Assembly: GCA_020429915.1 (NCBI GenBank)
Contig: JAGQKV010000002.1
Span: forward strand, 256,061 to 320,060
Direction: 5' to 3'
Source: Candidatus Omnitrophota bacterium
Lineage (GTDB): Bacteria > Omnitrophota > Gorgyraeia > Zapsychrales > Zapsychraceae
Length of the DNA stretch: 64,000 bases
Shown here: one piece after another, positions 8,707 to 62,229 of the stretch
Position numbering within the stretch: position 1 is the stretch's first letter
Layout: each line of letters begins with the position of its first letter
Position numbers and translations under genes: made by a program
Notes under the pieces: generated by a model
What the model was told of the DNA's origin: nothing
Database searches by the model: none
What the model saw: the letters and a program-made list of their open reading frames with translations, nothing else

Positions 8707-10023
8707 TTATTTTCCGGCCCACAGAAAATAGCGCAGATAAATGTACACCGATGAAATCACCAGCGCCAACACCGTAAACGGTACCCCGTAGGCGAGAAAC
8801 GTCCGGAAACGGATCGGGATGTTGTTCTTCTCTCCGATCCGCGACATGATGATGTTAGCCGAGGCCCCGATCAAAGTCCCGTTGCCGCCCAGACACGCCC
8901 CCAGGGCGAGCGACCAGAACAGTGGTTCGGCGATCGACGCGCGGGCCGCTTCAGCCGGGATGCCGGCGCTCTCGGCGAAGTGATGCGCGAACAACCGCAC
9001 CAGCGGGACCATCGTGATCACGAAGGGGATATTATCCAGAATTGCCGACAGGAACCCGCCTCCCCACAGGATCAGCAGGCACAGGACGAGCAGGTTGTCA
9101 CCGGACCAGCTGATGATCTGCCGCCCGATCGATTCGATGACTCCGTTGTGTTCCAGCGCGGAGATCATCATGAACATGCCGATAAAGAAAAAGATGACCC
9201 CCCACTCCACATGCATCAGCGTCTCTTCGGTATGCGCCCGGCAGACCAGCAGCATGATCATCCCGCCCAGCAGCGCTACCACTCCGGGTTCCACGTGCGT
9301 CACCTCCTGCAGGATAAAACCGAGAAAGATGAACGCCAGGATGATCAGTGATTTGCGCATGTTCACCGGGTCGACGATCGCCAACCGCGGGACGGCGCCC
9401 GTGACCCGGTGTTGAATATTGACGGGGATATGATAACGGTTGCGGATCAGCAGGTAAACCGCGGACAGGGTCGCCAGCATGATGACCACTACGACCGGCC
9501 CCAGGTGCATGAGAAAATCGTTGAACGAAAGGTGCACTTGCGAACCGATGACGATATTGGGCGGGTCCCCGATCAACGTGGCCGTCCCACCGATGTTCGA
9601 GACGATGGCCTCCATGATGATCAACGGGCCCGGCGCGCAATTCAAAAGTTGGAAGATCAGGACCGAAACCGGTACGATCAGGATGATGGTCGTGACGTTG
9701 TCCAGAAATGCCGATAACACCGCGGTCACGGTCAACAGCAGCAGCGTGATGCGGACCGGGTCGCCGTCCGCCATTTTTGCGACCGTGATCGCGATCCATT
9801 CAAAGAATCCGGTGCGTGCGATCACCTTCACGCACAGCATCATTCCCACCAGAAGAAAGATGACGTTGAAGTCCACAGCCTTCATCGCGTCCTCGAAGGA
9901 GACGAGCCGCAAGGCGACCACCAGAGTCCCGCCGACCATGGCCACAATGGTCTTGTTGACCTTTTCCGTGGCGATCAGGATATAACTGAAAATAAAAATG
10001 GCGATGGAGATGGCGGAATTCAT
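8707..10023 (-). CDS. ArsB/NhaD-family anion/cation permease (CitMHS superfamily)
   Basis: 438 aa, ~12 TM helices, internal duplication, LSAFLDNVTT/ILDNIP motifs typical of the family. Confidence 0.8.
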   Translation of the reverse strand: MNSAISIAIFIFSYILIATEKVNKTIVAMVGGTLVVALRLVSFEDAMKAVDFNVIFLLVGMMLCVKVIARTGFFEWIAITVAKMADGDPVRITLLLLTVTAVLSAFLDNVTTIILIVPVSVLIFQLLNCAPGPLIIMEAIVSNIGGTATLIGDPPNIVIGSQVHLSFNDFLMHLGPVVVVIMLATLSAVYLLIRNRYHIPVNIQHRVTGAVPRLAIVDPVNMRKSLIILAFIFLGFILQEVTHVEPGVVALLGGMIMLLVCRAHTEETLMHVEWGVIFFFIGMFMMISALEHNGVIESIGRQIISWSGDNLLVLCLLILWGGGFLSAILDNIPFVITMVPLVRLFAHHFAESAGIPAEAARASIAEPLFWSLALGACLGGNGTLIGASANIIMSRIGEKNNIPIRFRTFLAYGVPFTVLALVISSVYIYLRYFLWAGK

Positions 10024-10025
10024 TT

Positions 10026-10952
10026 TTACAAAAACAGAATTTTATCGATGATGGTAAAGCGGTCCACGATGCCCACCAGGCGCAGGGAATCGTCCGTAAT
10101 GTACAGCTTGGCCTGGTCCTTGATCGCCAGCAAAAATATCAGCTCGATAAGGGTGGCCTGACCGGAAACCGGTGTCACTTTTCGGAGTACGGCCTCCTCC
10201 AGGCGGAGATTTTTCTTGTCCGTAAAGTACTGCTCAAACGGATCGATGTGCCGGATAAAGGAGATCGTGGTCATGTCCTGAAAGAAATCAGGCAGTTCCA
10301 TGCGCAGGACGTCCCGGCAGGTCACCTCTCCCATCAGCCGGTCCTGGCTGTCCACCACCGGCAGGATGTCCATCTTGTGCAGGTGCATCAACCGCGTGGC
10401 CTCCTTGATATCCATGTCCAGTGTGGCCTTGACCAGGACCGGACGCATCACTTGTTCAGCCACCACCTGACCGGTCAGTTCGACTTGGGCCAGCAAAAGC
10501 TGTTGAATATCCGACCAGTCGTACTGTCCTCCCAGCCGGATCTTTTGCGGCAGTCCCGCGTCCAGAAAGAAATGGCTGAGCGCGGACATGGCCTGTAGAA
10601 CCGTGTAGGGTTCGTTCAGCGAGGAGACCATCAGACAGACGATATGGACCCGACCCTGGTCCGCGGCGCCGAAGTCGATCCCTTTCGCGCTGATGCCGAT
10701 CAAAAGGACGAATTCCTTCCACCCCTCAATGCGGGCGTGCGGAAAGGCGATGCCGTCACCCAGGGCGGTGCTTTGCAGATTCTCCCGTTCCATCAGCATC
10801 CGCAGGCAGTCTTCTCGGCTGACCGCGCCGCCGACCGCCGAGCGCCGGGAATACAAGGCATTGACAAGAAAGGCGACGGCCTCTTCTTTGGTGGCGGCCT
10901 GCATATCCGGAAACACCAGGTCCCGGGAGAGAAAATCCGCTATTCGGCTCAC
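10026..10952 (-). CDS. PTS EIIA type-2 (PtsN-like) domain protein fused to a CBS-domain pair
   Basis: 308 aa; N-terminal EIIA-2 domain with phosphorylatable His motif (GIAFPHAR); two C-terminal CBS repeats; GTG start with GGAG Shine-Dalgarno site; 2-nt gap to the permease gene. Confidence 0.7.
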   Translation of the reverse strand: MSRIADFLSRDLVFPDMQAATKEEAVAFLVNALYSRRSAVGGAVSREDCLRMLMERENLQSTALGDGIAFPHARIEGWKEFVLLIGISAKGIDFGAADQGRVHIVCLMVSSLNEPYTVLQAMSALSHFFLDAGLPQKIRLGGQYDWSDIQQLLLAQVELTGQVVAEQVMRPVLVKATLDMDIKEATRLMHLHKMDILPVVDSQDRLMGEVTCRDVLRMELPDFFQDMTTISFIRHIDPFEQYFTDKKNLRLEEAVLRKVTPVSGQATLIELIFLLAIKDQAKLYITDDSLRLVGIVDRFTIIDKILFL

Positions 10953-11069: not shown

Positions 11070-13118
11070 TTAGATGCTGTCGATAAAATCTTTGCGCGGT
11101 TCTTCACGATAGGGGTGTTCAAACGTGCCCAAAATATTTTTAAAGTCCGCCGAGGCCGGACCGCGTTTAAACGAGGCCCGCGGGCTTTCCCCTTCTCCGG
11201 AGACGCGAACAGGTTTTCCCATAATGAGAAACGGCAGATCCGCCTTAAGCAGATTGTCCGATTCCGCGTTGAGCCAGCCGTCCGCCTGAAACCGGTTTTG
11301 CATGGATCCCAAGTCCTTTTGACAATTGCCCTCGCGGTTGGCGGCACCGCTGGAATTGAAGTTAAAGGCGATCTTCTCCTCATATGGGTACGCGGCGGCC
11401 TGCATCAGGCAATCGTGGGCCGGCACATAAGCGTAGCCTTCCAGCCACTCCGGCTTTCCGGGTTGCGGCCACAACGCCAACTCGAGTTGTTTCCCGTCGA
11501 TTTGGGCCGACCAGGCGCCGACCATCCCCGCCGTCGCTCCGGTCGGTTCGGCCGTTTTCCCGGCAACCGGCGCGGTCTGTTCAGCGTCCGGTTTTTTGGA
11601 CCCGGTCTGTGAAGATTCGCCGGCGTTTTCGGGAGTCATCTCAGATGGATTTCCCGAGTAAGCATCCTGCACCAGCCCGATCCCTTCGGAGACCATGTCC
11701 ACCATCGACCGAAATTCCTCTGTCATTTGCTTGGTGCGCGTATTCATCGGTTTGTCCTTCATGTAGGCATACTTCCGCATGTTCCGGTATGCAGCTTGGA
11801 CGGTCTCATCCGTACAGTTCCCGCGGATGACATTTTCCAGGGAATTGATATGGCGTGTGAAATGCCCCATCGCCCAGCGCACGCTTTCGGCCGGACCGCG
11901 GCCGCGTTTCTGGTTATTCATGACGATCGTCATGTAACGGTTGACCGCCCACGGTTTCCAGGACTGATAGAACCACTCCCAACTCTCGACATACTCCGGG
12001 TCCAAATAAAGAGTACGCGGCGGGCCGACCGGTTCGGCGTTGCTGAAGAACCCGTCGGTGGTCACCTCCACCGTCTGCAATTGCAAAATCTTGGGATTCC
12101 GGATGTACGAACGGCAGTGTGTGGAATATAGCTCAAGAAAGTTCTCGTAGAAGAAGGCGAACAAATTCTGGTAGTCCTTAAGCAAACCGTAATTTTCCTC
12201 CGCCAGCACGCGCGCCATGGCCGCCAGGTCCGGGATCGGATCTTCTTCAGGGGCTTTGTAGGCGAGCGCCGTTCGGTCCACTTCCCAATCCTGCTCCTTG
12301 GCTGTCTTCAGGAAACAGTTTTCCGTGTCCACACACTCGTATTCTTCAGGGACCGGATTGATAGAAAAACGCAACGCGGTGACCTCCGGGCATTCCTTGG
12401 CGTAGCGTTGCGATACGCCCTTGGCCATCATGACATAATCCGTTATGTCCGGCGGATCGGCAAACGTGGCCTCCTGCCGGTTGGCATACATCGGGCTTAG
12501 TTCGATGATGGTATCCTCCTCGCAGCCGCCCTTGAAGTTGACACCGAGGGTGCTCATCATATCGCGGAACTTGATTTCGAAGGTGTGCAGGCCGTCGTAG
12601 GCCGTCTTGACCAGCCCGTCCTCAAGACGCCAGTTATTGGCGCGCCGCATCGTTCCTTTATAGTCGAACTTCCCCTGATGCGGATATACGGGCGTCGCCT
12701 CCACCCGGACGACCTGCAACTGCGGACATTGTTCGGACAGCGCCTTCACGGACGCGTCGAGAAAATCGCCGATCGGAAGGTCCGCACCCTTGCCGCTCTC
12801 AATGTGCCGCTTGACATCGACGACGCGTTGATCGCCGATGGAGACCTTGAGCGTAGCCAATTCCGAACACACCCCGCGGAAGACCGTCGTCACAGGCGAC
12901 TGCATCTTGGCTGCGGAGACTTGAAACGCATTCGGCTCGGCGTCCCGCTCGAAATTCTTCTGCATCCTGACCTGAATCTGGCCGTAGGTCCGCATGGTTT
13001 CGCGCTCTGTTTCCCAGGCCTTGGGTTCTGCGGACACCGCCGAACATAGCCCGATTAATAATAGAAAAGCGGTGGCTATGATCCAGCGCCGTCCGGATAA
13101 GGATTGGACTTGGGACAT
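11070..13118 (-). CDS. large secreted protein of unknown function (682 aa) containing a conserved Cys-bearing domain shared with the adjacent FKBP protein
   Basis: Sec signal peptide (LLLIGLCSAVSA); AAAGGA Shine-Dalgarno site; internal ~180 aa region (AEENYGLLKDYQNLF...NCTDETVQAAYRNM) homologous to N-terminal domain of ORF 13149..14111. Confidence 0.7.
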   Translation of the reverse strand: MSQVQSLSGRRWIIATAFLLLIGLCSAVSAEPKAWETERETMRTYGQIQVRMQKNFERDAEPNAFQVSAAKMQSPVTTVFRGVCSELATLKVSIGDQRVVDVKRHIESGKGADLPIGDFLDASVKALSEQCPQLQVVRVEATPVYPHQGKFDYKGTMRRANNWRLEDGLVKTAYDGLHTFEIKFRDMMSTLGVNFKGGCEEDTIIELSPMYANRQEATFADPPDITDYVMMAKGVSQRYAKECPEVTALRFSINPVPEEYECVDTENCFLKTAKEQDWEVDRTALAYKAPEEDPIPDLAAMARVLAEENYGLLKDYQNLFAFFYENFLELYSTHCRSYIRNPKILQLQTVEVTTDGFFSNAEPVGPPRTLYLDPEYVESWEWFYQSWKPWAVNRYMTIVMNNQKRGRGPAESVRWAMGHFTRHINSLENVIRGNCTDETVQAAYRNMRKYAYMKDKPMNTRTKQMTEEFRSMVDMVSEGIGLVQDAYSGNPSEMTPENAGESSQTGSKKPDAEQTAPVAGKTAEPTGATAGMVGAWSAQIDGKQLELALWPQPGKPEWLEGYAYVPAHDCLMQAAAYPYEEKIAFNFNSSGAANREGNCQKDLGSMQNRFQADGWLNAESDNLLKADLPFLIMGKPVRVSGEGESPRASFKRGPASADFKNILGTFEHPYREEPRKDFIDSI

Positions 13119-13148: not shown

Positions 13149-14111
13149 TTATCGGACCGCCAGCAATTCGATCTCAAAGACCAGCGTGGCGTTCGGACCG
13201 ATCGGTCCGAATCCCGCCGCACCGTAGGCCAGCTCCGGCGGAATGATCAGTTTGATTTTCCCCCCGGGCTGGATCAACTGCAACCCTTCGGTCCAGCCCT
13301 TGATGACGCCGTTCAGCGGGAAGCTGGTCGGCTCGCCACGGCTATACGAACTGTCGAATTCCTGGCCGTCAATCAGGGTTCCCCGGTAATGCACGGTGAC
13401 GGTGTTGGCCGCCGTCGGAAAGAGTCCTGCCCCTTGTTTGAGGATCGCATAGCGCAGACCGCTGGGTGTCCGCTGGGTCCCCTGGACCAGCTCGGGTGGC
13501 AGACCGCCGAAGTCTTCGGGCTCCGGGATCCGTGGCGCGTACGTCAGCAGATTACGATAGATCCGTTGTACGCGTTCATCGGTGCAGTGATCCCGAATCA
13601 GGAACGTGAGCTTATTGTAGTTCCTGATAAAGGACCCGGCCGCGAGTTTGGCCGCGCGGTTGGCATCCCGCCCGGCCGCGTGCTCCTTGCTGACCTTTTC
13701 GGCAATACGGTTGGAAATGTAAAGCCGGTTTTGGTCCTCGAATTGGTCGAAGTGCTTCGCGTACGGCTTGTCCAAGCTGATCGTGCGGGTGGGATCGATC
13801 TCGACGTCCCCGGTCTCAAATCCCCAGCGCGCCATTTCGCTTTCGATGGACGGCACCTGGCGGCTGACGGGCTCGAGGATCTGTTCCCCGCAATAGTCCG
13901 AGTAGATCTCCAGAAAGTCATTGTGAAACAGCCGCACCAACGGTGCGTGCGCGTCCAGTACGCCGTAATTCTCGGCCGCGAGATTATCGATCACCGCCTG
14001 GTAATCATTGGCCGCCGCCGGCGTCGTCCATAGGAGCAGGACGATAGCAAACAATGCCGTTACGGATGGGATTCCTGGATATGTCGATTTACTGCGCATG
14101 GTGTCTGTCAC
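13149..14111 (-). CDS. periplasmic FKBP-type peptidyl-prolyl cis-trans isomerase with N-terminal uncharacterised domain
   Basis: 320 aa; signal peptide; C-terminal FKBP domain (VTVHYRGTLIDGQEFDSS...LVFEIELLAV); N-terminal domain paralogous to region of 11070..13118; GTG start overlapping the MoaD-like stop (ATGA-type). Confidence 0.8.
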   Translation of the reverse strand: MTDTMRSKSTYPGIPSVTALFAIVLLLWTTPAAANDYQAVIDNLAAENYGVLDAHAPLVRLFHNDFLEIYSDYCGEQILEPVSRQVPSIESEMARWGFETGDVEIDPTRTISLDKPYAKHFDQFEDQNRLYISNRIAEKVSKEHAAGRDANRAAKLAAGSFIRNYNKLTFLIRDHCTDERVQRIYRNLLTYAPRIPEPEDFGGLPPELVQGTQRTPSGLRYAILKQGAGLFPTAANTVTVHYRGTLIDGQEFDSSYSRGEPTSFPLNGVIKGWTEGLQLIQPGGKIKLIIPPELAYGAAGFGPIGPNATLVFEIELLAVR

Positions 14112-14404
14112 CCCCCGGCAATGGCGCCGACGATGAATAACGGCTCCTGTCCTGATGCGACCGCAGCCGGTACGGAGGTCTGCGGGGCACGGTTGGAGTA
14201 ATCTTCTTCACAGGCGAAAAAACGGACCAAGGCCCGGCGTTGTCCGGTTTGCGGATCGCGGATGGTCCCGCGCAGGACCGGATATTTTTCTTCGAGTGCG
14301 TCGATGATATCGCCCAGACTGATTTCACCGGCCAGCTCCAGCGCCACTTCGTCCTGGATCCGGGCGAGTACCCTCAAGTGCGTCGGGAGTACAACACGGA
14401 TCAT
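14108..14404 (-). CDS. MoaD/ThiS/CysO-like ubiquitin-like sulfur-carrier protein (C-terminal Gly-Gly)
   Basis: 98 aa beta-grasp-like sequence ending ...VGAIAGG*; ATGA overlaps with both flanking genes. Confidence 0.7.
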
Positions 14405-15516
14405 GACAGCGTCTGCACCTCGACCGAAAGGACTTTGGGCAGGTCACGGGCCGCCGCCGTCCACGTGTCCCCGGCGTCCGCCGATACGTAAACCTGCCCG
14501 CCGGTCGTGCCGAAATAAATTCCGCAGGGATCGTGTCTGTCCACCGCCATGGCGTCGCGCAGGACATTGACATAACAGTGTTCCTGGGGAAGCCCCTGTG
14601 TAAGCGCCTCCCATTCCTCACCGCCTTTGCGGCTGCGGTAGACGCGCAGTTTGCCTTCGGGGGGATAATGTTCGCTGTCGCTTTTAATCGGAATGACGTA
14701 AATTGTATCCGGCTCATGCGCGTGCACGTCAATGGCGAAGCCGAAATCCGTGGGCAAATTGCCGCTGACCTCACGCCAGTTGTCGCCGCCGTCATCACTG
14801 CGCATCACGTCCCAGTGTTTTTGCATGAACAGGATGTTCGACCGTGAGGGGTGCATGGCGATGCGATGGACGCAGTGGCCGACCTCCGCGTCCGGATCGG
14901 GGATGTACTCGGACTTCAGCCCCTTATTGATGGGTTTCCACGACGCTCCGCCGTCATCGCTGCGAAAAGCGCCCGCCGCGGAGATGGCGATGTAGATTTT
15001 TTGGGGATCATCGGGTGAGACCAGGATCGTGTGCAGACACATGCCGCCGGCGCCGGGTTGCCATTTGGGGCCGGTGCCGTGCTGACGCAGACCGGGCAGT
15101 TCCTGCCAGCTGCGCCCCCCGTCTTTCGTTTTAAACAGGGCCGCATCCTCCACGCCGGCGTAAACGACGTCCGGATCATCCGCGGACGGCTCGAGATGCC
15201 AGACGCGCTTGAACTCCCACGGGTGCTGCGTTCCGTCATACCACAGATGCTGGCCCGTCTCGCCGTCATACCGGAACTCGTTGCCGACCGCTTCCCACGT
15301 CTTGCCGCCGTCATCCGAGCGCTGGATGACCTGACCGAACCAGGCGCTGGTTTGCGAGGCGTAAATCCGGTCAGGATCGGCCGGCGATCCTTTCATGTGA
15401 TAGATCTCCCATCCGCCGAAGAATGGTCCGTTGATGTTCCAGTTTCGGCGTGCGGCATCGGACTCGAGCACAAAGGCTCCCTTGGCGGTGCCGACGAGCA
15501 GGCGGGTTGCGGGCAT
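14401..15516 (-). CDS. cytoplasmic BNR/Asp-box repeat beta-propeller protein (sialidase/Ycf48-like fold)
   Basis: Start moved to [15 protein letters not shown] (the track ORF extends to 15705). No signal peptide. Five or more S-x-D-x-G-x-x-W Asp-box repeats ([44 protein letters not shown]). The stop overlaps the MoaD-like start. Confidence 0.7.
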
Positions 15517-15658
15517 ACGAACGATCCTTTCCCTAGAGGGTTTGTCTCCCGGCGAATACCGGTGTTCAAAACAGACTTCAATTGTATCGGGTTTGGACCG
15601 CTTTCGCAAGCGGTGAATCGACGGGTCGCGACACTTGCGGCGGGCGTGACCGGGTAGT

Positions 15659-16837
15659 ATGATAGTTCTCTTCGGAGGAAGAATCATGCACGACTGTCCC
15701 GACAATACGGAAAATACGGACGGCCTGGACCCGGCAGAACAAACGCGTTACGCGCGGCACCTGATCCTGCCGCTGTTCGGCGAGACCGGTCAACAACGGC
15801 TGAAGAACGCTCGGGTCCTGTTTGTGGGCGCCGGCGGGCTGGGATGCGCTCCAGCCCTGTACCTGGCGGCGGCCGGCGTGGGGACAATCGGCCTGGCCGA
15901 CGATGACGTGGTGGCTGAATCCAACCTGCAGCGACAGGTTTTGTACACGACGGCCGATATCGGCCGGCCCAAGGTCGAGGCCGCGCGTGAGCGGCTGTTG
16001 GCGCTGAATCCGCATATCAAGGTTCTCACCCACCCCCACCGTCTGACGGCCGCCAACGCGCTTGAGGTGATGCGCGCTTACGATGTCATCATTGACGGAA
16101 CCGACAATATTCCGGCGCGCTATCTGATTAACGATGCGGCCTTCATAATTAAGAAACCGTGGGTGTATGCCGGGGTGCATCAGTTTGAAGGCCAGTGCTG
16201 TGTGTTTGCGCCGGGCGGACCGTGTTACCGATGCTTCTTCCGTGATCCGCCGCGTCCAGAGGATATGCCGTCCTGTGCCGAGGCCGGCGTGATCGGCGTG
16301 GTCCCGGGACAGATGGGATTATTGCAGGCGAATGAAGTCATCAAACTCCTCAGCGGGATCGGCGAACCGTTGACGGGTCGTTTGTTATTATACGATGCGT
16401 TGGAAACGCGACTGCGTGAGGTACGGATCAAACCGGACCCGGCCTGTCCCCTGTGCGGTTCCGCGCCTTCTATCACGAAACTTACCGAAACCGCCTGGAC
16501 GTGTCCGGCCCACGATTCCGTTCCCGAGGTTTCGGTAAAGGAATTTAAGGTCATTTACGACAGCGGCCGACCGATTTTCCTGCTGGATGTGCGGGAAGAG
16601 TCGGAGCACCGGGTCGCGCGTATCGAACGGGCCTGCCTCATTCCGTTGGGACAGCTGCCGGATCAACTTGAACAGATTCCGCGGGACATGCCGGTGTATT
16701 GTTTCTGTAAACTCGGCGGACGCAGCGCCAAAGCGGTACGTCTCCTGCGGGAAAACGGATTTGAGGTGGTTATCAGCCTGGCCGGCGGGATCCAGGCCTG
16801 GTCCGAGCAGATCGATCCGGACGTTCCGACCTATTAA
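15659..16837 (+). CDS. MoeZ/MoeB-type E1-like adenylyltransferase with C-terminal rhodanese domain
   Basis: 392 aa; ThiF/MoeB fold with GAGGLG nucleotide loop and CxxC...CxxC zinc motif (CYRC, CPLC), C-terminal rhodanese domain with active-site Cys (CFCKLGGRS); the start may be the internal M at 15686. Confidence 0.85.
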
Positions 16838-20010: not shown

Positions 20011-20406
20011 CTACGGATTAAAATACAATAGTTCCCAGATATGGCCGTCCGGGTCCTGAAACCCGTGTCCATACATCAGCGGGTGGTCCTGCGGCTGCGT
20101 ATACGTCTTGCCTCCGTTGGCAACGGCACTTTCCACCATTCGCTGAACTTCCTCCTTGCTCTCAAGAGTCAGGCACACCAGCACCTCCGTGTTCCGCGAC
20201 GTGTCACAAATTTCGTTCGGAGTAAAGGCCCTGAACTTCGGGTGCGTGACCAGCATGACAAACATATTCTCACCGACGATCATGCAAGTTGAGTGATCAT
20301 CGGTAAACTTCGGTTCGAAACGGAATCCCAGGGCCGTAAAAAAGTCGACGGATTTGGCCAGGTCGACCACGGGCAGGTTGATATAAATTTGATTAGCCAT
20401 AATCAT
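20011..20406 (-). CDS. VOC-family (glyoxalase/bleomycin-resistance fold) protein
   Basis: 131 aa; paired beta-alpha-beta-beta-beta modules typical of glyoxalase I-like proteins. Confidence 0.7.
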   Translation of the reverse strand: MIMANQIYINLPVVDLAKSVDFFTALGFRFEPKFTDDHSTCMIVGENMFVMLVTHPKFRAFTPNEICDTSRNTEVLVCLTLESKEEVQRMVESAVANGGKTYTQPQDHPLMYGHGFQDPDGHIWELLYFNP

Positions 20407-34973: not shown

Positions 34974-36905
34974 TTAGATCTTCATGCCTTTTTTGCCGAG
35001 CACGAACACCGTCACCGCCAGGAAAACCAACTCGAACAAAACATAGGTGATCAGTCCCATGGCAATGCCGGAGGTGAATCCGTAGGAATGCAGTCCGACG
35101 CTGAGCAGGTTGACACCGAACCACGCCCACATCACAACAATGAGCGTAAGGATAGAGCCGACGGCGACACCCAACGGGTGTATAAGTTTGGCCAATCGCA
35201 TATGAAACAGTAATGCCACCCACAGCACGATCATCAGCGCGCCGTTCTCTTTGGGGTCCCATCCCCAAAAACGTCCCCATGACTGATCGGCCCATATCCC
35301 TCCCAGCGCGGTGCCGAGAAAGGTCGTGGTGAGTCCGAAACCGAGAATGCCCAAGGTATTGTTCAGCGTGGCATTCAGGCGCTTGGTGTTCTTGGAATCA
35401 AACAGGGCCTGCAGGACATAAATATGCCCCATGATCCCACCCACGCAGCATCCGGCATAACCGATGGTAATGGTAATCACGTGAGTACTCAGCCAGAAAT
35501 TCGAATCAAGTACGGCCACCAGGACTTTCAGGGTGTCACCGTCCCCACCGAATTTCGAGGCAATTGTCAAAAAGATCAGACCACTGACGCTGGCAATGGT
35601 CAGGCCCAGCGAGTTGCGGTTGACCCACTCCAGAATAAATCCGAGAATAACGGCTATCAGCCCGACGAAAATGAATGTCTCAAACAGATTGCTGACTGGC
35701 GGGCGGGCCATGATCAAAATGCGCAGGATTTGTGCGATCAGATGAGGAACGAAACCGGCCACAGCAAGGACCGCCGCCGTACGTGACAGCCAGGGTCGGG
35801 AAGAAAGCAGGCTGAACAACAGAAACATAAAGGCCAAACCGTAACCCAGCTTGGCCCACAAAAATCCGTTGAAGTCATTGTAAAACAATTCCAGTCCGAA
35901 CCGGTCGTATTGCTCCTTCTCTTTCGGTGACAGCCGCTTGCCGACAGAATCCAGATAGGCCTTGGCTGCAATATTAAACTGCAACTGCTCGCCGTTCCAG
36001 TAGTACACGGTCATGTTGCGAATGTGTGTAATCTCGTCGAAGTAAGCCTCCTGGTCCACGTTCAGCCGCATGATGTCCATCGGGCTCAACCAGCTTTCCT
36101 CTTCATATCTGACGGTGGGAATGACACCGAACGGCGCGTTGCCGTAATGTTCGGTCCAGAAATACATCGCGTTGATCAATCGCGCCACGGTCTTACCTTC
36201 TTCACTCCACTGCTGCACATCCCCGCCGCGCAGGACCATGGCCGCGGCTTCCAGTTTGTCGGTGACCACATACAGGTCATAAAAACTAAATTTGTCCCGG
36301 TCCGTGGCCAGCCCAAGTTTCTCTTTAATTTCCGGAGACGTCAAATCAAAGTCCGGATGCGGAAAGGCGTAGGCAAAGGCACCCGAAATACGGATGTAAT
36401 AGCCGAGGTTCGAGTAAACGCGCAGGATCTCCCGTTCGACGGCGGAAAGTTCTTTTTCATCGATGTCCATGAGGACCTCGGCCAACTCTTTTATCTTGTC
36501 GTAACCCGGTTCCAGCTGACGCCATGAGTAACGCCGGCGTTTTTCCGGATCCACTTTTATCGCCTCGAGGATTTCCGGATTATTAATCAGAAAGATCTGG
36601 TCGCGATAGGTCGTCCGGGGTGCGAAAATAAACCGGGCGAACCACTCCAGCGCGCTCTCCTTACCGTATGAACGACGCCCAGACAAACGCAGCAGGAAGC
36701 TCTTGGCAAAGGTTTCCATCGGTTTGATGCGACCTTCGTTCAGGACGGGAATCCGGGCAAAGGCTTCAAGGTCATTGACCTTGGTGGGCTTCAGCGTGTC
36801 CAGCGGACAAATGTTCTGGGCCGTGGCGTTCCCGGAATACAGCAGTCCGGTCAGGACGGTCAGAAGCAAAAATCCGTTGCCGAGATTTCGGAGTTTATTT
36901 CGCAT
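34974..36905 (-). CDS. ccsA: cytochrome c biogenesis protein CcsA/ResC (System II), long form with N-terminal periplasmic domain
   Basis: Trp-rich WWD motif (WGRFWGWDPKENGALMIVLW) and conserved His residues in the C-terminal TM bundle; start trimmed to MRNKLRNLG (signal peptide), overlapping the 3' end of ccsB. Confidence 0.8.
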   Translation of the reverse strand: MRNKLRNLGNGFLLLTVLTGLLYSGNATAQNICPLDTLKPTKVNDLEAFARIPVLNEGRIKPMETFAKSFLLRLSGRRSYGKESALEWFARFIFAPRTTYRDQIFLINNPEILEAIKVDPEKRRRYSWRQLEPGYDKIKELAEVLMDIDEKELSAVEREILRVYSNLGYYIRISGAFAYAFPHPDFDLTSPEIKEKLGLATDRDKFSFYDLYVVTDKLEAAAMVLRGGDVQQWSEEGKTVARLINAMYFWTEHYGNAPFGVIPTVRYEEESWLSPMDIMRLNVDQEAYFDEITHIRNMTVYYWNGEQLQFNIAAKAYLDSVGKRLSPKEKEQYDRFGLELFYNDFNGFLWAKLGYGLAFMFLLFSLLSSRPWLSRTAAVLAVAGFVPHLIAQILRILIMARPPVSNLFETFIFVGLIAVILGFILEWVNRNSLGLTIASVSGLIFLTIASKFGGDGDTLKVLVAVLDSNFWLSTHVITITIGYAGCCVGGIMGHIYVLQALFDSKNTKRLNATLNNTLGILGFGLTTTFLGTALGGIWADQSWGRFWGWDPKENGALMIVLWVALLFHMRLAKLIHPLGVAVGSILTLIVVMWAWFGVNLLSVGLHSYGFTSGIAMGLITYVLFELVFLAVTVFVLGKKGMKI

Positions 36906-38064
36906 GCGGCGCTCCCTGCCGTTGACGTTTGCGTGTGTTGACAGCGGCCATGGCAAAGTGAATGACCAAACCGGCGAACGTCACAAAGGTTGAAATGTAG
37001 GGAAGGACACGTCCGTGATTCCGGACCACGGCCAGCGTCGAACTTTCATTGCGGAACTGGTCGACGGAAAATGATGACTGATAAAAGGTGTACTCCCGGT
37101 GCCGCAACGGATTATTCATGGTGATCGGCTTCTCCCGCCACTGCCCCCCGGTGTCGACGGCAACCTTGCTTTTGAAGCTGCGTGCCGTTTGCGTCCCCGG
37201 ATGCTCTTCCTTGATGAATTCCACCAGCTTGAGCGTAAACGGCATCGGGTAGCGTTTCAAGCGCAGGCTCAAATGATACGTCTTCCCACCGGCCTCGATC
37301 GGCGTCGGAATTCTTTCGGCACCGTAGAGTATGACGTGTGAACTGCCTTCGGGTGTTGTGACCTCCAGAATAATTCCCGGGGTATTGCGTTCCGGTTCCT
37401 TTTCCAATTTGGCGGCCTCAATTTTTTGCACGCCCGAGGCATTCAGATAGCGGCTGTCTCCGTCATTGACCGCATAGGCGTTGGCATTGCGATGATACTC
37501 GAGTAACTTGATAATGATCCCGCTGTCCTCCATCGGCAGCGGCTGGTTGATCTTCAAACGGGCGACATCGACTCCGGTCACCGTGCGGATTACTTTACCG
37601 TCGGTCCGTTCGGGCGGGGCCTCCCAGATTGCCAGCTCCCAATCATGAAAAGCCGATGAAACATTCGTGGCCTGGCCTTCCTTGAGGGTGACATGACTTT
37701 CTTCCGCCGTATTCAGAATCACGTAGCCCGAAACAAAAAACATCAGCAGACCGATATGGATGACAAGGATACCAAAATTTTTCCAACTGTAGACAAAGCG
37801 AATCAGCATAACCGCCAGGACGTTGATAAACAGGATCCACATAACCAGTTGCCCGCCGGGAAAGGGGATGAAGCCCAGAACCAGGAAATAAAAGGAATGA
37901 AAGAATCTTTCCTGGGCGAGATACAGTCCGCTCTGGACCTGCGCGATTGTCCCCCACAGAGTAAGCAGGAACAGCAAGAAAATACCCAGACAGGTGATTC
38001 TCAGCGAAGCCAGGGCTTGAAGAAGTTTGATTTTGCGTAATTTTTGTCGGAACTTTGAAGTCAT
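36895..38064 (-). CDS. ccsB: cytochrome c biogenesis protein CcsB/ResB (Ccs1)
   Basis: 389 aa; N-terminal TM helices, large periplasmic domain, C-terminal TM helix; classic ResB layout immediately upstream of ccsA. Confidence 0.8.
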   Translation of the reverse strand: MTSKFRQKLRKIKLLQALASLRITCLGIFLLFLLTLWGTIAQVQSGLYLAQERFFHSFYFLVLGFIPFPGGQLVMWILFINVLAVMLIRFVYSWKNFGILVIHIGLLMFFVSGYVILNTAEESHVTLKEGQATNVSSAFHDWELAIWEAPPERTDGKVIRTVTGVDVARLKINQPLPMEDSGIIIKLLEYHRNANAYAVNDGDSRYLNASGVQKIEAAKLEKEPERNTPGIILEVTTPEGSSHVILYGAERIPTPIEAGGKTYHLSLRLKRYPMPFTLKLVEFIKEEHPGTQTARSFKSKVAVDTGGQWREKPITMNNPLRHREYTFYQSSFSVDQFRNESSTLAVVRNHGRVLPYISTFVTFAGLVIHFAMAAVNTRKRQRQGAPHAK

Positions 38065-38897
38065 TATTTTTCCGCTATGGAAAGGATCAGATCGCGAAAG
38101 TCAGGCAATCGGGCGCTGATGGCCGCCTTGCCTCCTGTCATCTTGACGAATATCTGTGACCGGCCGCGGTCGATGATCGCGGCGATCATGCTGGGTGCGT
38201 CGGCCGGCGCGTCCGATTGCAGGGTGGTCAGGTCGACCAGCGTCAAGCTCAGCCCGGACGCGGTCGTGAGTTGTTCCTGTTCGGCCAGAAAACGCTGTAG
38301 ATCTGCATCGTTGACTGAAATATTGACTTGCCTTAACCAACGACCGACATTGGCCTGAAGACCGCCCGCGCTCCCACCAAGACTGATGATCGAAGTCTCG
38401 GTCGGTCCGACGCCTCCCGTCGTGGTGAACGTCGCGAGCCGCAAACCGCTTCCCTTCTGTTCCGACCAGCCGGCCGGTGTTTGCCAGACTAACGGGGAAC
38501 GGTCGACCGACTGTTCCAGTTCGGGGGTGACCGGCATCGTGCTCATGCTCATACCGCTCCCTGAATTCGCCGAAGATTGAGCCTGCAGTCCGGCGTGAAT
38601 GGCGTCATCCGGCATGGTGCGGCCGGCCAGGCCCGCGTGGATCTCGTCCTGGGGCATGTCGCCGGATCCCATGAGCCCGGAATGAATGGCATCTTGCGGC
38701 ATTTTATTTGGATCCAGCCCGGCATGGATGGCGTCCTGGGGCATGGATTTGTCCCCGGAGCGCATGGCATGCGGAGGAATCTGCGAACGGTCGGATTCGA
38801 TAAAGATCTCTTCGTAGTGCCGTGTGAGGGTGGGCTGGCCGCATCCGGATACAAGAAAGACAGCGACCAATGCAATATTTCGTCGAAAATTAGTCAT
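38064..38897 (-). CDS. lipoprotein with four tandem MPQDAIHAGL-type repeats
   Basis: 277 aa; lipobox VFLVSGC; repeats MPQDAIHAGLDPNK/MPQDAIHSGLMGSGD/MPQDEIHAGLAGRT/MPDDAIHAGLQAQ; C-terminal ~150 aa Gly/Thr-rich domain; stop abuts ccsB start. Confidence 0.65.
   Translation of the reverse strand: MTNFRRNIALVAVFLVSGCGQPTLTRHYEEIFIESDRSQIPPHAMRSGDKSMPQDAIHAGLDPNKMPQDAIHSGLMGSGDMPQDEIHAGLAGRTMPDDAIHAGLQAQSSANSGSGMSMSTMPVTPELEQSVDRSPLVWQTPAGWSEQKGSGLRLATFTTTGGVGPTETSIISLGGSAGGLQANVGRWLRQVNISVNDADLQRFLAEQEQLTTASGLSLTLVDLTTLQSDAPADAPSMIAAIIDRGRSQIFVKMTGGKAAISARLPDFRDLILSIAEK
38560..38770 (-). repeat. tandem ~42-45 nt coding repeats (4x) encoding the MPQDAIHAGL motif
   Basis: plus-strand copies ...GCCCGCGTGGATCTCGTCCTGGGGCAT / GCCCGGAATGAATGGCATCTTGCGGCAT / GCCCGGCATGGATGGCGTCCTGGGGCAT...; diverged at synonymous sites. 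Confidence 0.6.
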
Positions 38898-38907
38898 GGA
38901 ATTAAAA

Positions 38908-40425
38908 TCAGTTGCCGGTGTGACAGTCCGTACAGCTCATGTCTTCCCACAATCCGTCGTCCTCAAACGGATGAGTAAAGCCGAGCCCCCGGGTATCCCG
39001 TTCAAGATTGTCGGGCGGTCCCTGCTCTATAATGGAGTGACAGACAGTACAGTCTTTGGTGATGACCGCTCCGTCACTGCTGGTGTGCTCTCCGTCGTGG
39101 CAGCGGAAACATCCGGGAGCCACGAGATGGCCGATATTGTCCGGGTAGGCATCCCACCGGGCTTTCATTTCAGGGAACATGCTATTCTGGAACATTTTTT
39201 GCACGGATGCAACTGCTTTCTTGACCTGAGGCTCCCGGGTGGCAAAATTATCTCCCAATTCCTCACGGTAATGGGTTGTCAACTCCGTGTCAATCGTCTC
39301 CAAGGCTTCCGTTTCGCTTGTGTATTCCTTGGATAGCAATTCCATGGCTTTGCTTTTGATGCCCGGCAATTCAGGGTCGATCTCATTTGAGGCCATGGCC
39401 TGATTGAGGAGGCGGCTGGGATAGGGATAACGGTGTGTGGGGCGGTTGTGGCAATCCATACAATCCATTTTATGAATAACTTCCGCGGGCGGAGGCGTAT
39501 CCTTCCATTTGGAATCTTCAGAGGTGTAAACGGTCTCTTTTCCGTCTTTGTCCACGCTCTTCACCCACGTGACTTCCTGCAGACGCTCATCCTCGGCGGC
39601 AAAATAAATATCGTTGTCAATGTACATGTGCTTGTGAATTCCGCTGCCTTTTTCCGGCGTGCCGCCGACGTGAACCAGCATCCGTAGCAACCAGCTCGGA
39701 TGTTCGCTGTCGTATGCCGTGAAATATGTCTTGTTCATCTCGACGGAGGTGTACGATTTGCCCGGCCAATGGCAACGTTCACAAGTCTCCTCAGCGGGGC
39801 GCAGATTATGGACAGGGGTAGCGATCGGTCGGGAATAGTCGCCTTTGATCGTATGGTACACCTGCCGAATCCCCGAGATCTTGGCGCGGACATACCACTC
39901 CGCCCCTTCTCCGATGTGGCACTCCACGCACTTGACCCGGGCATGCGGGGAATTGATGTAGGTGGTGTGTTCGGGTTTCATCACATCGTGGCACATCAGA
40001 CCGCAAAAGGCCACCGACTCGGTGTACTGATAAGCCTTGTACGTGCCGATGGCCGTCATGATCAGCAGGATACCTGTGCCGAGGATAAAGACAAATATCG
40101 CATTGCGGTGGGACGGAACACTCGGGTCGATCCTGATCGGCCCCGGTTTGGACGCGGATTTCCCTTTCAGAACAGCCCGGCGTTTCAACAAGGCGCCCAC
40201 CGGAATCAGAAGCAGGCCGATGATCAGGAAAACGGGCAGAATCGCGTAGGTCAGTATCCCCAGATAGAGATTCTGACCGTGCGAGAAGAATTCAAAGGCG
40301 AACATCAACAACTCGACGATAAAAAAGAAAATCGCAATCAGAACGCCGATATACGTCGTCCAGTTGTAGAAATAGACCGAGAACTTTTGTTTGGGTGTCG
40401 GCACGTCCGCCGGTTGCTTACTCAA
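38908..40425 (-). CDS. inner-membrane multiheme c-type cytochrome, ImcH-like (7 heme motifs)
   Basis: 505 aa; two N-terminal TM helices; heme sites CGLMCH(CX3CH), CVECH, CERCH, CMDCH, CFRCH, CTVCH, CTDCH. Confidence 0.75.
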   Translation of the reverse strand: MSKQPADVPTPKQKFSVYFYNWTTYIGVLIAIFFFIVELLMFAFEFFSHGQNLYLGILTYAILPVFLIIGLLLIPVGALLKRRAVLKGKSASKPGPIRIDPSVPSHRNAIFVFILGTGILLIMTAIGTYKAYQYTESVAFCGLMCHDVMKPEHTTYINSPHARVKCVECHIGEGAEWYVRAKISGIRQVYHTIKGDYSRPIATPVHNLRPAEETCERCHWPGKSYTSVEMNKTYFTAYDSEHPSWLLRMLVHVGGTPEKGSGIHKHMYIDNDIYFAAEDERLQEVTWVKSVDKDGKETVYTSEDSKWKDTPPPAEVIHKMDCMDCHNRPTHRYPYPSRLLNQAMASNEIDPELPGIKSKAMELLSKEYTSETEALETIDTELTTHYREELGDNFATREPQVKKAVASVQKMFQNSMFPEMKARWDAYPDNIGHLVAPGCFRCHDGEHTSSDGAVITKDCTVCHSIIEQGPPDNLERDTRGLGFTHPFEDDGLWEDMSCTDCHTGN

Positions 40426-40446
40426 ATACTGATCTCCCGCGGCTTA

Positions 40447-42489
40447 CTACCAGTGATAATTAAAATCAACCCAGGCCACATGCGCAATATAATTACCGAA
40501 CTCCGATACAGAGGTCGTATCGTAATGATAGTACGCATAGTGCGGCTCGACCGACCAGTTTTTGTCCCGGGGAGCGTAGCTCATCGTGACTTCCGCCGTG
40601 TAGTAATCGTTGGATGCGGCCAGCGGCAGAGAGGAACTGGTAAAGTCGTTAAAATTGTCGGTAAACGTCTTGGCCACCGCCGCGGTGATCGACCACTCGT
40701 CCGTCGGCACATAGCTGGTGCTTACCAGCAGGCTTTGTAAGTCCGCGCTGAAACCGGGCAACACCGCCGGACTGGAACTAGATGCTGCCGGCGTGGTCGT
40801 GTTGGCGTCCTGGTAGGTATAAGAACCGTTAACGAATAATTCCTTCATCACCTGAACGAAAATATCATAGGTGAAGGTGTGCGAGCGGAAACGGGTCTCA
40901 ACCGTGTCCGACAGGCCCTGTACGCGGGTCTTGTACTTTTTTCCATTGAACTGGTAGCGCACCGAACTTTGCAACCATTTTAATGGTTTCCAGGTTAATT
41001 TTGTAGTGAATTCATCACCGATAACTTGGAGGGAGTCCACGAATGCGGAATTAATGGCTCCTGACGTATCAACTTCATCATCATAGTCATTATTCTCGTA
41101 CTTTCTCCGAGCCTGGAAGGTGATGTTGTAGAAACGGGACGGAATAATTCGTGTTCCCAGGGTATATTGGGCCTTCTTGGTCTTGGTTTCCGTGACCCGC
41201 TGCCAGTTGAACAGGTAATCGGAATCGCGCTGGATTTCATTGAGGTCGTTGTTCATTTCCGTTAATTCGATATCTCCGTAGATCGAGGCCTTCTCGATAC
41301 CCGTGTACTGAACGGCGAAGTTCTGGCCGAACTGCCAGAGTTTTTCGCGGGACTGGCTGTAATCGGTATCGTCAATAATACCGTCGGGTGTAGCAGGAGA
41401 GTCATCTGAGGGGTAGACTGATTCACCCTTACGCTTCATTAGCTGATTTCTGGACTTGACGGTAAAGCGCAGCGTTTTACTCAATTCGTACATATAGTGT
41501 CCAACAACGGTGTGACTGTCTACTTCATTGTATGCTTGGGCATTTACGATTTGATGTGCAAAACTGAAGTTTGTTGGAACGCCAAATTCATCGGACTCTA
41601 CAATATTCTCCACTTCCTCATTTTCGAGACTTGCATAACGGTATGCCAAATTCAGGTAGGACGTGTCCTCTTCCCCGAACCAGCGGTTGCCTTGGAATGT
41701 GGTGGTAAAGATGTCACTCTCAGGCTTCTGGTTTTGAGCCCTTTTCTTGCGTTGCGATGCGGTTGCTGCGGTGGAGAGCCAACGTTCGTAACGGGTGTTA
41801 TCTGAATCGGTCCGTTCGTAGGTCTGCTCTGCACTGACATTAAACCCGGCGATTTCGGTTCCCCCGCGGACGCCGAAGATATCGACCTTTTCATCAATAC
41901 TTTGATAGGTCGGAGTTATTTCCTTTGCCACGGCGCCCTCCCGGGCCTCCGCCCAATTGAGCCGTGATTTTTCTCCGTCTTTCATATGGTGCTCATACCA
42001 AACGAGCAAAGTAAACTGATCTCCGATCTCCGGAGCGAAAGAGAAAAACAGTGACTGGATATCTAATTCCAAATCGCGGTTTAAATCATTGCTTTGGAGT
42101 GTGGAAAATGGATAAAAGAATCCACCCGAATCATCGTAATACTTGCGGAAGCTTTCGTATACAAATTGAAAAGCCCCGATACCGGGATTGGAATATTTAA
42201 CATTTGCTTCATGATCGTTGTCATCCGGAAGACTATGACCTTCAAAAGTAAGCATGCTGTCGTCTTCGTACTCCTTGCTGAAGAAGAGGTCTTTGATCCC
42301 TCCCGAGTAACCTTCGTCCATCCAGTGGTGGGCACGGAATTTCTTCTCGTCGCCTTTTACTTCCACATTCTTAGCTGGAGTAACGGTGATGGAAAACTCT
42401 TCGCCTTCCGCCGCCTCCGCCGGGGAATTCGGCAATACCGCGGCCCAGCCGATCAGTCCGAACAATAAGAGGAATGAAAATTTTCTCAT
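40447..42489 (-). CDS. large outer-membrane beta-barrel (porin-like) protein
   Basis: 680 aa; signal peptide (LLFGLIGWAAVLPNSPAEA); Tyr/Trp/Phe-rich alternating pattern throughout; C-terminus ...VAWVDFNYHW (aromatic terminal residue). Confidence 0.65.
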   Translation of the reverse strand: MRKFSFLLLFGLIGWAAVLPNSPAEAAEGEEFSITVTPAKNVEVKGDEKKFRAHHWMDEGYSGGIKDLFFSKEYEDDSMLTFEGHSLPDDNDHEANVKYSNPGIGAFQFVYESFRKYYDDSGGFFYPFSTLQSNDLNRDLELDIQSLFFSFAPEIGDQFTLLVWYEHHMKDGEKSRLNWAEAREGAVAKEITPTYQSIDEKVDIFGVRGGTEIAGFNVSAEQTYERTDSDNTRYERWLSTAATASQRKKRAQNQKPESDIFTTTFQGNRWFGEEDTSYLNLAYRYASLENEEVENIVESDEFGVPTNFSFAHQIVNAQAYNEVDSHTVVGHYMYELSKTLRFTVKSRNQLMKRKGESVYPSDDSPATPDGIIDDTDYSQSREKLWQFGQNFAVQYTGIEKASIYGDIELTEMNNDLNEIQRDSDYLFNWQRVTETKTKKAQYTLGTRIIPSRFYNITFQARRKYENNDYDDEVDTSGAINSAFVDSLQVIGDEFTTKLTWKPLKWLQSSVRYQFNGKKYKTRVQGLSDTVETRFRSHTFTYDIFVQVMKELFVNGSYTYQDANTTTPAASSSSPAVLPGFSADLQSLLVSTSYVPTDEWSITAAVAKTFTDNFNDFTSSSLPLAASNDYYTAEVTMSYAPRDKNWSVEPHYAYYHYDTTSVSEFGNYIAHVAWVDFNYHW

Positions 42490-42504
42490 GATGAGCTCCT
42501 TCTA

Positions 42505-43272: not shown

Positions 43273-43308
43273 AAGGCGGCTCCTTTCTACGTTTCTCCTG
43301 GACAATAT

Positions 43309-60552: not shown

Positions 60553-60555
60553 GAT

Positions 60556-61095
60556 TTAGGCGGCGATATTCACCAGGATCAGTTCCGCCTCCTCGCGCCG
60601 GAGAGAAAGCATATAACCGCGGACTTTGATTTCGACCGGGTCCCCGAGAGGAGCAAAACGGATGATTTCAATCTGTTCACCCGGGGTTAGGCCCATTTCT
60701 TCCAGCCGCGCGCAGGTGTCATTCTCCTCGAGAAAATCATGAACGCGGCCGGTCTGCCCCACGGTCAGTTCGCTGAGACGTTTGATGTCCTCTTGTTCAG
60801 CCATGTCTCCCTCCGCTGGTTGCGGGCATTGACCGACAATGACGTTGCGGGCCAATCCTTCACTGATAATGATTTTGGAATCACAGACTTTGCAGATAAA
60901 CGCCGAGTTATGCGCGATCATCTGTATTTGGGCATTCTCGCAAAAGCCCATCTCCCGCAGGCGCTGGCATTCGCCATGATCTCCGCGGAGACATTCGATC
61001 AGCACCTGCTCTCCCGCACAGACATCGCACAGGCTCTTGCTGTCCGTGACGGGCGCGGGCTGCGTCCCTTTTTGTTTCTTGATCAAGTTCAACAT
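60556..61095 (-). CDS. feoA: tandem FeoA-domain protein (two FeoA/SH3-like domains), first with Cys cluster
   Basis: 179 aa; two FeoA-like halves (...GEQVLIECLRGD...CENAQIQMIAHN...; ...GQTGRVHDFLEEN...GLTPGEQIEIIRFAPLGDPVEIKVRGYMLSLRREEA); first half contains CDVC...C...C; 3-nt gap to feoB. Confidence 0.75.
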   Translation of the reverse strand: MLNLIKKQKGTQPAPVTDSKSLCDVCAGEQVLIECLRGDHGECQRLREMGFCENAQIQMIAHNSAFICKVCDSKIIISEGLARNVIVGQCPQPAEGDMAEQEDIKRLSELTVGQTGRVHDFLEENDTCARLEEMGLTPGEQIEIIRFAPLGDPVEIKVRGYMLSLRREEAELILVNIAA

Positions 61096-62143: not shown

Positions 62144-62229
62144 CGGGACCTCCTTGGGTAGGTGTTTACGTTCAACGTTGGTGACACGGTTTTAAGACGT
62201 GGCGCTCGGCTGGTCAGCGATCCGGGACC

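Follow-up and report, generated by a model that had tools for sequence, protein, structure and literature searches.

Which of the genes that surround a MoeZ-like activating enzyme work together with it, and on what does such a system act? This question is raised by a 64,000-nucleotide stretch of Candidatus Omnitrophota bacterium DNA (assembly GCA_020429915.1, contig JAGQKV010000002.1, forward-strand positions 256,061 to 320,060; hereafter the window), in which a gene encoding an E1-like adenylyltransferase with a rhodanese domain faces a minus-strand run of genes for an Asp-box (BNR) beta-propeller, a small ubiquitin-like protein (Ubl) ending in Gly-Gly, an exported FKBP and an exported 682-amino-acid (aa) protein. 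A preliminary description of the locus treated these tightly packed genes as a single functional complex. Comparison of the locus with those of other bacteria indicates that the functional unit is instead a three-part Ubl system and not a five-gene operon: the propeller and the Ubl form a pair that is conserved across bacterial phyla, and the E1 joins them in one clade of Omnitrophota.

The propeller and the Ubl form a conserved pair

The central features of the locus, in window coordinates, are the following.

15686..16837, plus strand: E1-like adenylyltransferase with a C-terminal rhodanese domain (MoeZ/Uba4 architecture), 383 aa, from Pfam matches and motifs
15517..15685, no strand: divergent intergenic region of 169 bp between the E1 gene and the propeller-Ubl cassette, from reading of the sequence
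14401..15516, minus strand: cytoplasmic seven-bladed Asp-box (BNR) beta-propeller, 371 aa, of a hyperconserved subfamily of the 3B7F / YP_299179.1 family
14108..14404, minus strand: Ubl, a 98-aa beta-grasp protein with the end AIAGG, CysO/SAMP/MoaD-like, from an AlphaFold2 (AF2) model, Foldseek and hhalign

Homologues of the propeller were found in at least 598 species genomes when one genome per species was scanned, and gene neighborhoods were counted at the best 80 of these loci, which cover more than 12 phyla (Acidobacteriota, Gemmatimonadota, Planctomycetota, Verrucomicrobiota, Chloroflexota, Actinomycetota, Proteobacteria, Eremiobacterota, Armatimonadota, Methylomirabilota, Rokubacteria and others). 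In 79 of the 80 loci the Ubl gene directly follows the propeller gene in the same orientation, the remaining locus being truncated by the end of its contig, and the two genes overlap by 4 nt at 51 of 78 junctions. Such adjacency is far above chance expectation. All-against-all clustering of the open reading frames (ORFs) from the 80 loci, called with a crude ORF caller that is noisy in high-GC DNA, revealed no third conserved neighbor, and the contexts of the individual loci are unrelated to one another.

The association also occurs in a second gene order. A tblastn search of annotated plasmids and chromids found propellers with about 30% identity in Pseudomonas aeruginosa and Ralstonia solanacearum, where an 89-aa 'MoaD/ThiS family protein' is encoded directly upstream of the propeller, that is, in the reverse arrangement. 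These 89-aa proteins end in SGG and have the motif P-x-LRG-x-I-x-D...RR in common with the window Ubl. On this comparison of sequences, the propeller-Ubl association predates the hyperconserved subfamily. The co-conservation of the BNR protein and the Ubl, on which the preliminary description depended, is thus borne out by the adjacency, the overlaps and the second gene order.

The most conventional explanation of the locus is a housekeeping pathway for molybdopterin, thiamine or cysteine, in which the Ubl is MoaD, ThiS or CysO, the E1 is MoeB or ThiF, and the propeller is an unrelated neighbor. It agrees with the source labels, which are 'MoaD/ThiS family' and 'molybdopterin synthase sulfur carrier subunit' for the Ubl and 'MoeB' for the E1, and with an E1 score above the MoeB subfamily cutoff. 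However, the Ubl is coupled to the propeller, and not to MoaE, ThiG or CysM, in both gene orders, it forms a uniform 98-aa family of its own with no Pfam ThiS match, and no genes of molybdenum cofactor or thiamine synthesis recur in the 80 loci. Within the window, no MoaA/C/E, MoeA, ThiG/H, CysM or JAMM gene was found among the scanned ORFs of at least 150 aa, a few overlapped ORFs in the list having been left unscanned. More generally, no known partner enzyme of such carriers (MoaE, ThiG, CysM, TtuA or JAMM) was found near the Ubl in the window and none recurs in the 80 loci. We therefore regard a housekeeping role as very improbable. The earlier statements that the Ubl is not a housekeeping MoaD among moa genes, and that sulfur-insertion enzymes and JAMM peptidases are lacking nearby, hold within the same scope.

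Certain genes of stress-type families recur loosely around these loci. Genes for an ECF-like (extracytoplasmic function) sigma factor of about 415 aa and for YciI are found upstream in about 8 of the 80 loci (L023, L062 and about 6 others), and the P. aeruginosa pair (L090:1-4450) is flanked by two YciI genes, a sigma factor gene, two VOC genes and a thioredoxin-family gene. A VOC/glyoxalase gene lies beside or near the E1 gene at L081:4452-4844, at L096:6167-6589 and at 20011-20406 of the window. This recurrence could be due to chance, given genomes rich in such families.

Conservation and structure of the propeller

Propeller identity between phyla is flat, at 71–92% with a median of 80%, and the median for the Ubl is 66%. 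To account for this, we considered the four-fold degenerate sites, where identity is 0.42 compared to the 0.35 expected from base composition alone. The synonymous sites are saturated, and the propeller has therefore been held by strong purifying selection over a long divergence, and not spread by recent transfer; recent horizontal spread was rejected as a cause of the high identity on the same evidence. More than 8000 homologue clusters have about 78% identity to the propeller, and clustering of a library at 50% identity leaves essentially a single full-length sequence for the whole subfamily. Two lengths are found, one of 371 aa and one of about 392 aa with a Pro/Gly-rich insert of about 21 residues after the first Asp-box (length-variant loci: L093:4666-5844, L096:3672-4856 and L097:3806-4984; L049, L062, L066 and L076). 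Both occur in several phyla, and both lie beside the E1 gene in Omnitrophota.

The propeller matches the BNR and Sortilin-Vps10 models of Pfam, and 3B7F is the only PDB entry that it matches by sequence (phmmer E 3.5e-74, residues 5-366). The AF2 model (pLDDT 81) has a strand pattern that fits seven blades with a closing C-terminal strand, and Foldseek aligns it with 3B7F at a TM score of 0.86 and 36% identity over the alignment. These results place it in the 3B7F / YP_299179.1 family, which a published survey describes as functionally uncharacterised; its seven-bladed Asp-box propeller closes in an unusual way and has an open tunnel of 9 x 11 A (PMC2716378). The next Foldseek neighbors are halves of GH74 proteins, followed by peptide-bound propellers, namely DAIP with a C-terminal thermolysin fragment, Ycf48 with the D1 peptide, and sortilin/SorLA with peptides.

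The non-structural residues that stay invariant in all three subfamilies, even where identity falls to 30%, are H162, H217, Q232, H234, R239 and R320. In the AF2 model, blades 3 and 4 carry H162 and H217 in their innermost strands, and blade 4 has Q232 and R239 in strands two and three, with H234 in the turn between these; R320 lies in a stretch with little DSSP strand, and its inner-strand placement rests on our own assignment of the blades. Subfamily A has many further invariant His, Cys and Met residues, including C160, C215 and C331, three cysteines that the distant Ubl-linked branch does not retain.

Propellers with His-metal sites at the hub are known from peptidylglycine-processing PAL and from N2O reductase. 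A hub ring with one histidine per blade, as in the CuZ site of N2O reductase, was considered for the window propeller and set aside, as the positions are non-equivalent although they lie on or just after the innermost strands; it is kept as a lead only. A second metal lead comes from a paralogue of about 40% identity in Fuscovulum (L089:4983-6131), which has a His-rich insert, DAHGHDHGACGH, immediately before the conserved GHCVH motif; this paralogue has no adjacent Ubl and adjoins an SCO protein and a multicopper oxidase. A paralogue of similar identity in Rhodobacter (L088:3601-7128), also with no adjacent Ubl, adjoins egtB-egtD, genes of ergothioneine synthesis.

The source annotation of the propeller as an 'exo-alpha-sialidase' is not supported. 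This cytoplasmic protein gave no match to the GH33 sialidase catalytic-domain model, only the BNR repeat and Sortilin-Vps10 models being passed and BNR_3 reaching E 0.004 with 17 bits against a cutoff of 27, and six-bladed sialidase structures are absent from the 50 fold matches listed. As far as models and folds can tell, the annotation is very probably wrong. The P. aeruginosa pair we take to be PA1355/PA1356, an unverified guess from gene order near pmpM. A report that lists these guessed, unverified tags merely repeats the sialidase-type annotation (PMC11538994).

The Ubl and its Gly-Gly end

The AF2 model of the Ubl (pLDDT 91.9) predicts a beta-grasp, or ubiquitin-like, fold. Its top Foldseek matches are SAMP1 (3po0), CysO (3dwg_C), BexX/CysO, a MoaD-related protein, MoaD and Urm1, with a probability of 1.00 for SAMP1, CysO, the MoaD-related protein and MoaD, and TM scores of 0.6–0.73. 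By sequence and profile, the PDB yielded only ribosomal L23 and a marginal SAMP1 match (E~0.8), and NCBIfam gave no match at E<0.01. An hhalign comparison of the Ubl profile with a provisional CysO sequence was full-length, with a probability of 81% and E 1.2e-5.

The Gly-Gly that closes the window Ubl is present in 78 of 78 orthologues read, and the end is exactly AGG in 71 of them. Six have 2–4 residues past it (L012, L033, L035, L046, L064 and L066), with the ends GGRTLV, GGCY, GGQI, GGAI, GGER and GGRK; no peptidase family recurred near these extended Ubls in the clustering of ORFs from the 80 loci. At L078:1950-3185 the Ubl runs without a stop into an ECF-type sigma factor, which is either a real fusion or an assembly error.

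The fold leads to the possibility that the Ubl is a protein modifier, conjugated to lysines of targets that may include the propeller, independently of E2 and E3 as for SAMPs and Urm1, perhaps together with persulfidation of cysteines under oxidative stress. SAMP1 as the best fold match, the further match to Urm1 and the Uba4-like rhodanese architecture of the E1 are consistent with this, as are the invariant propeller cysteines and the loose recurrence of VOC, YciI, ECF sigma and thioredoxin-like neighbors. In addition, conjugation of Urm1 reportedly requires the E1-derived thiocarboxylate alone (PMC9574740). However, no JAMM/MPN deconjugating peptidase lies near any locus inspected (the window and the 80 loci), the propeller cysteines are lost in the distant Ubl-linked branch, and the strict one-to-one coupling of the two genes fits an enzyme with its carrier better than a broad modifier. 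For these reasons we consider a modifier role quite unlikely.

The E1 and its linkage to the pair in Omnitrophota

The E1 ORF spans 15659-16837 on the plus strand; the likely start is the ATG at 15686, which has GGAGGA 7 nt to its 5' side and gives a protein of 383 aa that matches the calls in relatives. Pfam identifies ThiF (PF00899, 3.9e-82) and Rhodanese (PF00581, 6.9e-14) domains, and the motifs read include GAGGLG, two CxxC pairs (CYRC and CPLC), the cysteine of CAEAGV and, at residue 341 when counted in the 383-aa protein, the rhodanese loop CKLGGR, which is intact. The protein is therefore predicted to be a ThiF-type adenylating enzyme with the active-site cysteine loop of a rhodanese. 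It passes only the subfamily model PRK05690 (MoeB; 284 against a cutoff of 266), and the NCBIfam equivalog cutoffs for MoeZ (392.9 against 647) and for PRK08762 MoeB (421 against 449) are not reached. Its nearest relatives are Omnitrophica/Omnitrophota proteins annotated as 'MoeB'. In some E1-rhodanese relatives with 53-56% identity (P0334 and P0351), the E1 is preceded in the same chain by a fused ThiS/MoaD domain (PF02597).

An anti-phage system of the Ubl/E1 type (CBASS Cap2, or the Bil/6A-MBL type) was also considered and rejected, there being no nearby E2 or JAB gene. The PADLOC comparison showed a resemblance to E1-E2 models for the E1 adenylation domain only (at most 66 bits), and the propeller, the Ubl, the FKBP and the 682-aa protein had zero matches.

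Inspection of relatives of the E1 revealed the propeller-Ubl pair facing the E1 gene in 10 of 10 loci with E1 identities of 55% or more (55-91%). These loci are L081, L082, L092-L097, a JGI contig and L100, the last being the one informative locus contributed by a metagenome scan with the E1; the propeller is cut by the contig end in L092 and L095. The clade keeps the head-to-head layout of the two transcription units seen in the window, and the E1 with the propeller-Ubl cassette is the sole conserved block of the ten loci, whose outer neighbors all differ. Each E1-linked length variant of the propeller has its closer relatives among copies from other phyla, and the other E1-linked variant is more distant. 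This suggests that the E1 linkage was kept or re-made across propeller variants, the tree signal being weak in a saturated family.

Outside the clade the picture changes. The 80 loci contain a single ThiF match, 29% identical and about 4.5 kb away, so that the E1 cannot count as a universal component; as far as gene neighborhoods indicate, the link is real but clade-specific. The linkage of E1, Ubl and BNR propeller proposed in the preliminary description therefore stands within the Omnitrophota clade, and elsewhere the pair occurs with no E1 of its own.

Proposed mechanism

We postulate the following sequence of steps. The E1 would adenylate the terminal glycine of the Ubl, and the persulfide of its rhodanese domain would turn the Ubl C-terminus into a thiocarboxylate. 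For the pairs of other phyla, this role would fall to a MoeZ-like E1 that acts in trans from another locus; in actinobacteria, MoeZ serves both CysO and MoaD, and a trans-acting E1 is normal there. The flexible AGG tail would then dock on the propeller, probably at the His/Arg-lined hub or the top face, with H162, H217, H234, Q232, R239 and R320 as candidate docking residues, in parallel with the MoaD tail entering MoaE and the CysO tail entering CysM. The propeller would be the enzyme acting on the activated C-terminus, which it would use or process, handing sulfur to some acceptor. We give this reading as a whole, from activation of the Ubl by the E1 to use of the activated end at the His/Arg site of the propeller, an even chance of being correct. 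A more specific version, which we put forward only tentatively, is that the propeller represents a new class of thiocarboxylate-dependent enzymes, possibly metalloenzymes, whose His/Cys/Met-rich hub takes Gly-Gly-COSH and makes a sulfur metabolite, a cofactor or a metal-sulfide center. If this were true, the product would be important enough to hold the propeller about 80% identical across more than 12 bacterial phyla.

Several observations weigh against the proposed steps. Relatives of the E1 at 53% identity (L098 and L099) occur without the pair, the window E1 looks like the general MoeB-type enzyme of the phylum, and its adjacency to the cassette could reflect co-regulation and not dedication. 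The Ubl falls below the Pfam ThiS/MoaD model PF02597 at E<0.01. In the propeller, the conserved histidines do not occupy strictly equivalent strand positions in the AF2 model, and the branch of about 40% identity that includes 3B7F keeps the His/Arg residues with no adjacent Ubl in 3 of 3 loci. Apart from the one distant ThiF match, genes for an E1, a rhodanese, a JAMM peptidase or a cysteine desulfurase are absent within 10 kb of the pair in the 80 loci of other phyla, so that sulfur chemistry is not demanded by the context outside the clade.

Some of these observations would also be expected if the Ubl had no part in sulfur transfer and were a stoichiometric regulatory or structural subunit of the propeller, its carboxylate tail plugging or gating the pocket, and the E1 were a housekeeping MoeB that owes its place beside the pair to co-regulation or history. 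The lack of sulfur-mobilising genes near the pair in other phyla, the peptide-binding propellers (sortilin, Ycf48) among the structural neighbors, and the occurrence of 53%-identical E1 relatives without the pair are all consistent with such a role. However, the Gly-Gly is kept throughout the orthologues, and the six Ubls with short, cleavable-looking extensions show what is a hallmark of C-terminal chemistry in this fold family. Moreover, the block shared with the E1 is the only one conserved, in all ten loci down to 55% E1 identity and with two propeller variants. A sulfur-independent role is, in our judgment, unlikely, and we retain activation of the Ubl by the E1 and use of its C-terminus by the propeller as the working model.

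The exported proteins and other genes of the window

Two further genes follow the Ubl gene in the window.

13149..14111, minus strand: exported prolyl isomerase of the FKBP type (FKBP_C 5.3e-29), whose N-terminal domain is novel
11070..13118, minus strand: 682-aa exported protein of no family (no Pfam or NCBIfam match), outside the range 13149-16837 first described

All five genes named in the preliminary description are real by their ORFs and by the reading of Pfam and NCBIfam matches, and reading of the sequence confirmed a cytoplasmic BNR propeller, a GG-ended Ubl of 98 aa, an exported FKBP and an exported 682-aa protein. The N-termini of the propeller, the Ubl and the E1 have no signal-peptide-like features as read, and those of the FKBP and the 682-aa protein are signal-peptide-like, so both look exported. 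The propeller ORF (14401-15705, minus strand) opens at a TTG at 15705; because 371 aa is the length of essentially all homologues, the real start is the ATG at 15516. A sigma-70-like site on the minus strand at 15609-15581, identified by consensus match only, lies 5' of the propeller gene. Of the two ATGA junctions originally described, that between propeller and Ubl is a true overlap, in which the Ubl start overlaps the propeller stop. That between Ubl and FKBP is not: it is GTGA if a GTG start is used, and otherwise an 8-nt spacer precedes the ATG at 14099, the equivalent of which is the FKBP start in the relative L082. The gap of 30 nt between the FKBP gene and the 682-aa gene was given correctly.

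It is conceivable that E1, propeller, Ubl, periplasmic FKBP and 682-aa protein act in one complex or pathway, for example in the modification of proteins before export. In the window the genes follow one another closely on a single strand, and the gene order is identical in L081 and L082. These two are near relatives, however, with propellers 96% and 91% identical to the window copy, and they are the only loci in which the FKBP and the 682-aa protein follow the Ubl. The genes after the Ubl all differ in the remaining E1-linked Omnitrophota loci, and neither exported protein was found in any of the 80 loci. A promoter-like site 5' of the 682-aa gene, which as a consensus match is weak evidence, also argues against a single unit. 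The FKBP and the 682-aa protein are homologous to each other over residues 36-192 of the former and 297-451 of the latter, with 34% identity and E 5e-25; the shared domain of about 155 aa has conserved cysteines and no family-model match, and it was seen only in the window and its two closest relatives. Judged by this distribution, the two exported proteins form a pair of their own that is specific to the lineage, and they are passengers outside the conserved system. The five-gene complex is thus highly improbable, and modification of the co-encoded secreted proteins has no comparative support, because they accompany the pair only in its two nearest relatives.

Other genes of the window are recorded here as observations. 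At 8707-10952 on the minus strand, the gene for a CitMHS/ArsB-type transporter with a below-cutoff likeness to the magnetosome protein MamN is preceded by a PTS-EIIA and CBS fusion gene, and the same fusion gene follows the 682-aa region in L081. Two minus-strand stretches, 34974-43305 and 58450-61095, hold a cluster of genes for multihaem c-type cytochromes (NapC/NirT-like, with doubled CXXCH), accompanied by genes of cytochrome c biogenesis (ResB/CcsA-type) and one for a 680-aa protein of no family, with FeoA/FeoB further on; two DUF2059 paralogues are found at 61277-63554.

Comparison with known systems

The known partner enzymes of Ubl sulfur carriers are few, namely MoaE, ThiG, CysM, TtuA/Ncs6 and BexX. 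A propeller partner, if confirmed, would bring a new enzyme class into Ubl sulfur chemistry, and probably also a thio-product or a modification of the C-terminus that is new. At least 598 species genomes contain the pair, which abounds in soil phyla and matches core translation factors in its conservation, and it has had no name beyond 'sialidase' and 'MoaD/ThiS family'; the E1 linkage in Omnitrophota offers a missing clue. Related pairs in culturable hosts (P. aeruginosa, Ralstonia, Thiobacillus denitrificans, Acidipila and Tundrisphaera) make the system testable. No model in Pfam, NCBIfam or PADLOC is specific to the propeller or the Ubl of the pair. No mention of the pairing was found in the searchable literature or in the beta-grasp surveys of the Aravind group, a scope that does not extend to subscription-only papers, and the earlier view that a BNR propeller is an undescribed context for a Ubl is upheld to that extent.

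The closest parallels are the CysO-CysM-MoeZ system of Mycobacterium tuberculosis and the BexX/CysO 2-thiosugar system. The window Ubl superposes on CysO (3dwg_C, 3dwm and 4n6e_B) and has the same GG tail, and the window E1 has the ThiF and rhodanese architecture of MoeZ. However, the partner is an Asp-box propeller and not the pyridoxal phosphate enzyme CysM or the thiazole-synthase-like BexX, and the window pair has no Mec+/JAMM peptidase. The MoaD-MoaE system with MoeB is similar in that a small GG-ended carrier is translationally coupled to its partner gene and the E1 is of the MoeB type. It differs in that moa genes are absent from the scanned window ORFs and none recurs in the 80 loci, the Ubl lies below the ThiS/MoaD model of Pfam, and MoaD structures rank under SAMP1 and CysO as fold matches.

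SAMP1/UbaA and Urm1/Uba4 act both as sulfur carriers and as protein modifiers. SAMP1 is the top fold match of the Ubl (3po0, E 1e-4, TM 0.73), and the E1 carries a rhodanese fusion like that of Uba4. Unlike the archaeal SAMP1/UbaA and eukaryotic Urm1/Uba4 systems, the present one is bacterial and has a dedicated, hyperconserved propeller partner, and the analysis gave no sign of conjugation.

For the propeller itself, the nearest known protein is 3B7F (Reut_B4987 / YP_299179.1), a homologous seven-bladed propeller that retains H40, H162, H214, H217, H222, H234, H265, R239 and R320 of the window protein. It differs in belonging to the subfamily of about 40% identity, in which no adjacent Ubl was found in the three loci checked, and its 'glycosyl hydrolase' label is annotation only. 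The sortilin/SorLA Vps10 domains, Ycf48 and DAIP have a related fold, and their peptide-bound structures provide a precedent for a C-terminal tail held in a propeller; unlike the window propeller, they are receptors or assembly factors with 12-20% identity and no link to an E1. With these likenesses and differences, the propeller-Ubl pair and its clade-specific E1 point to a sulfur-carrier-type system that has not been described before.

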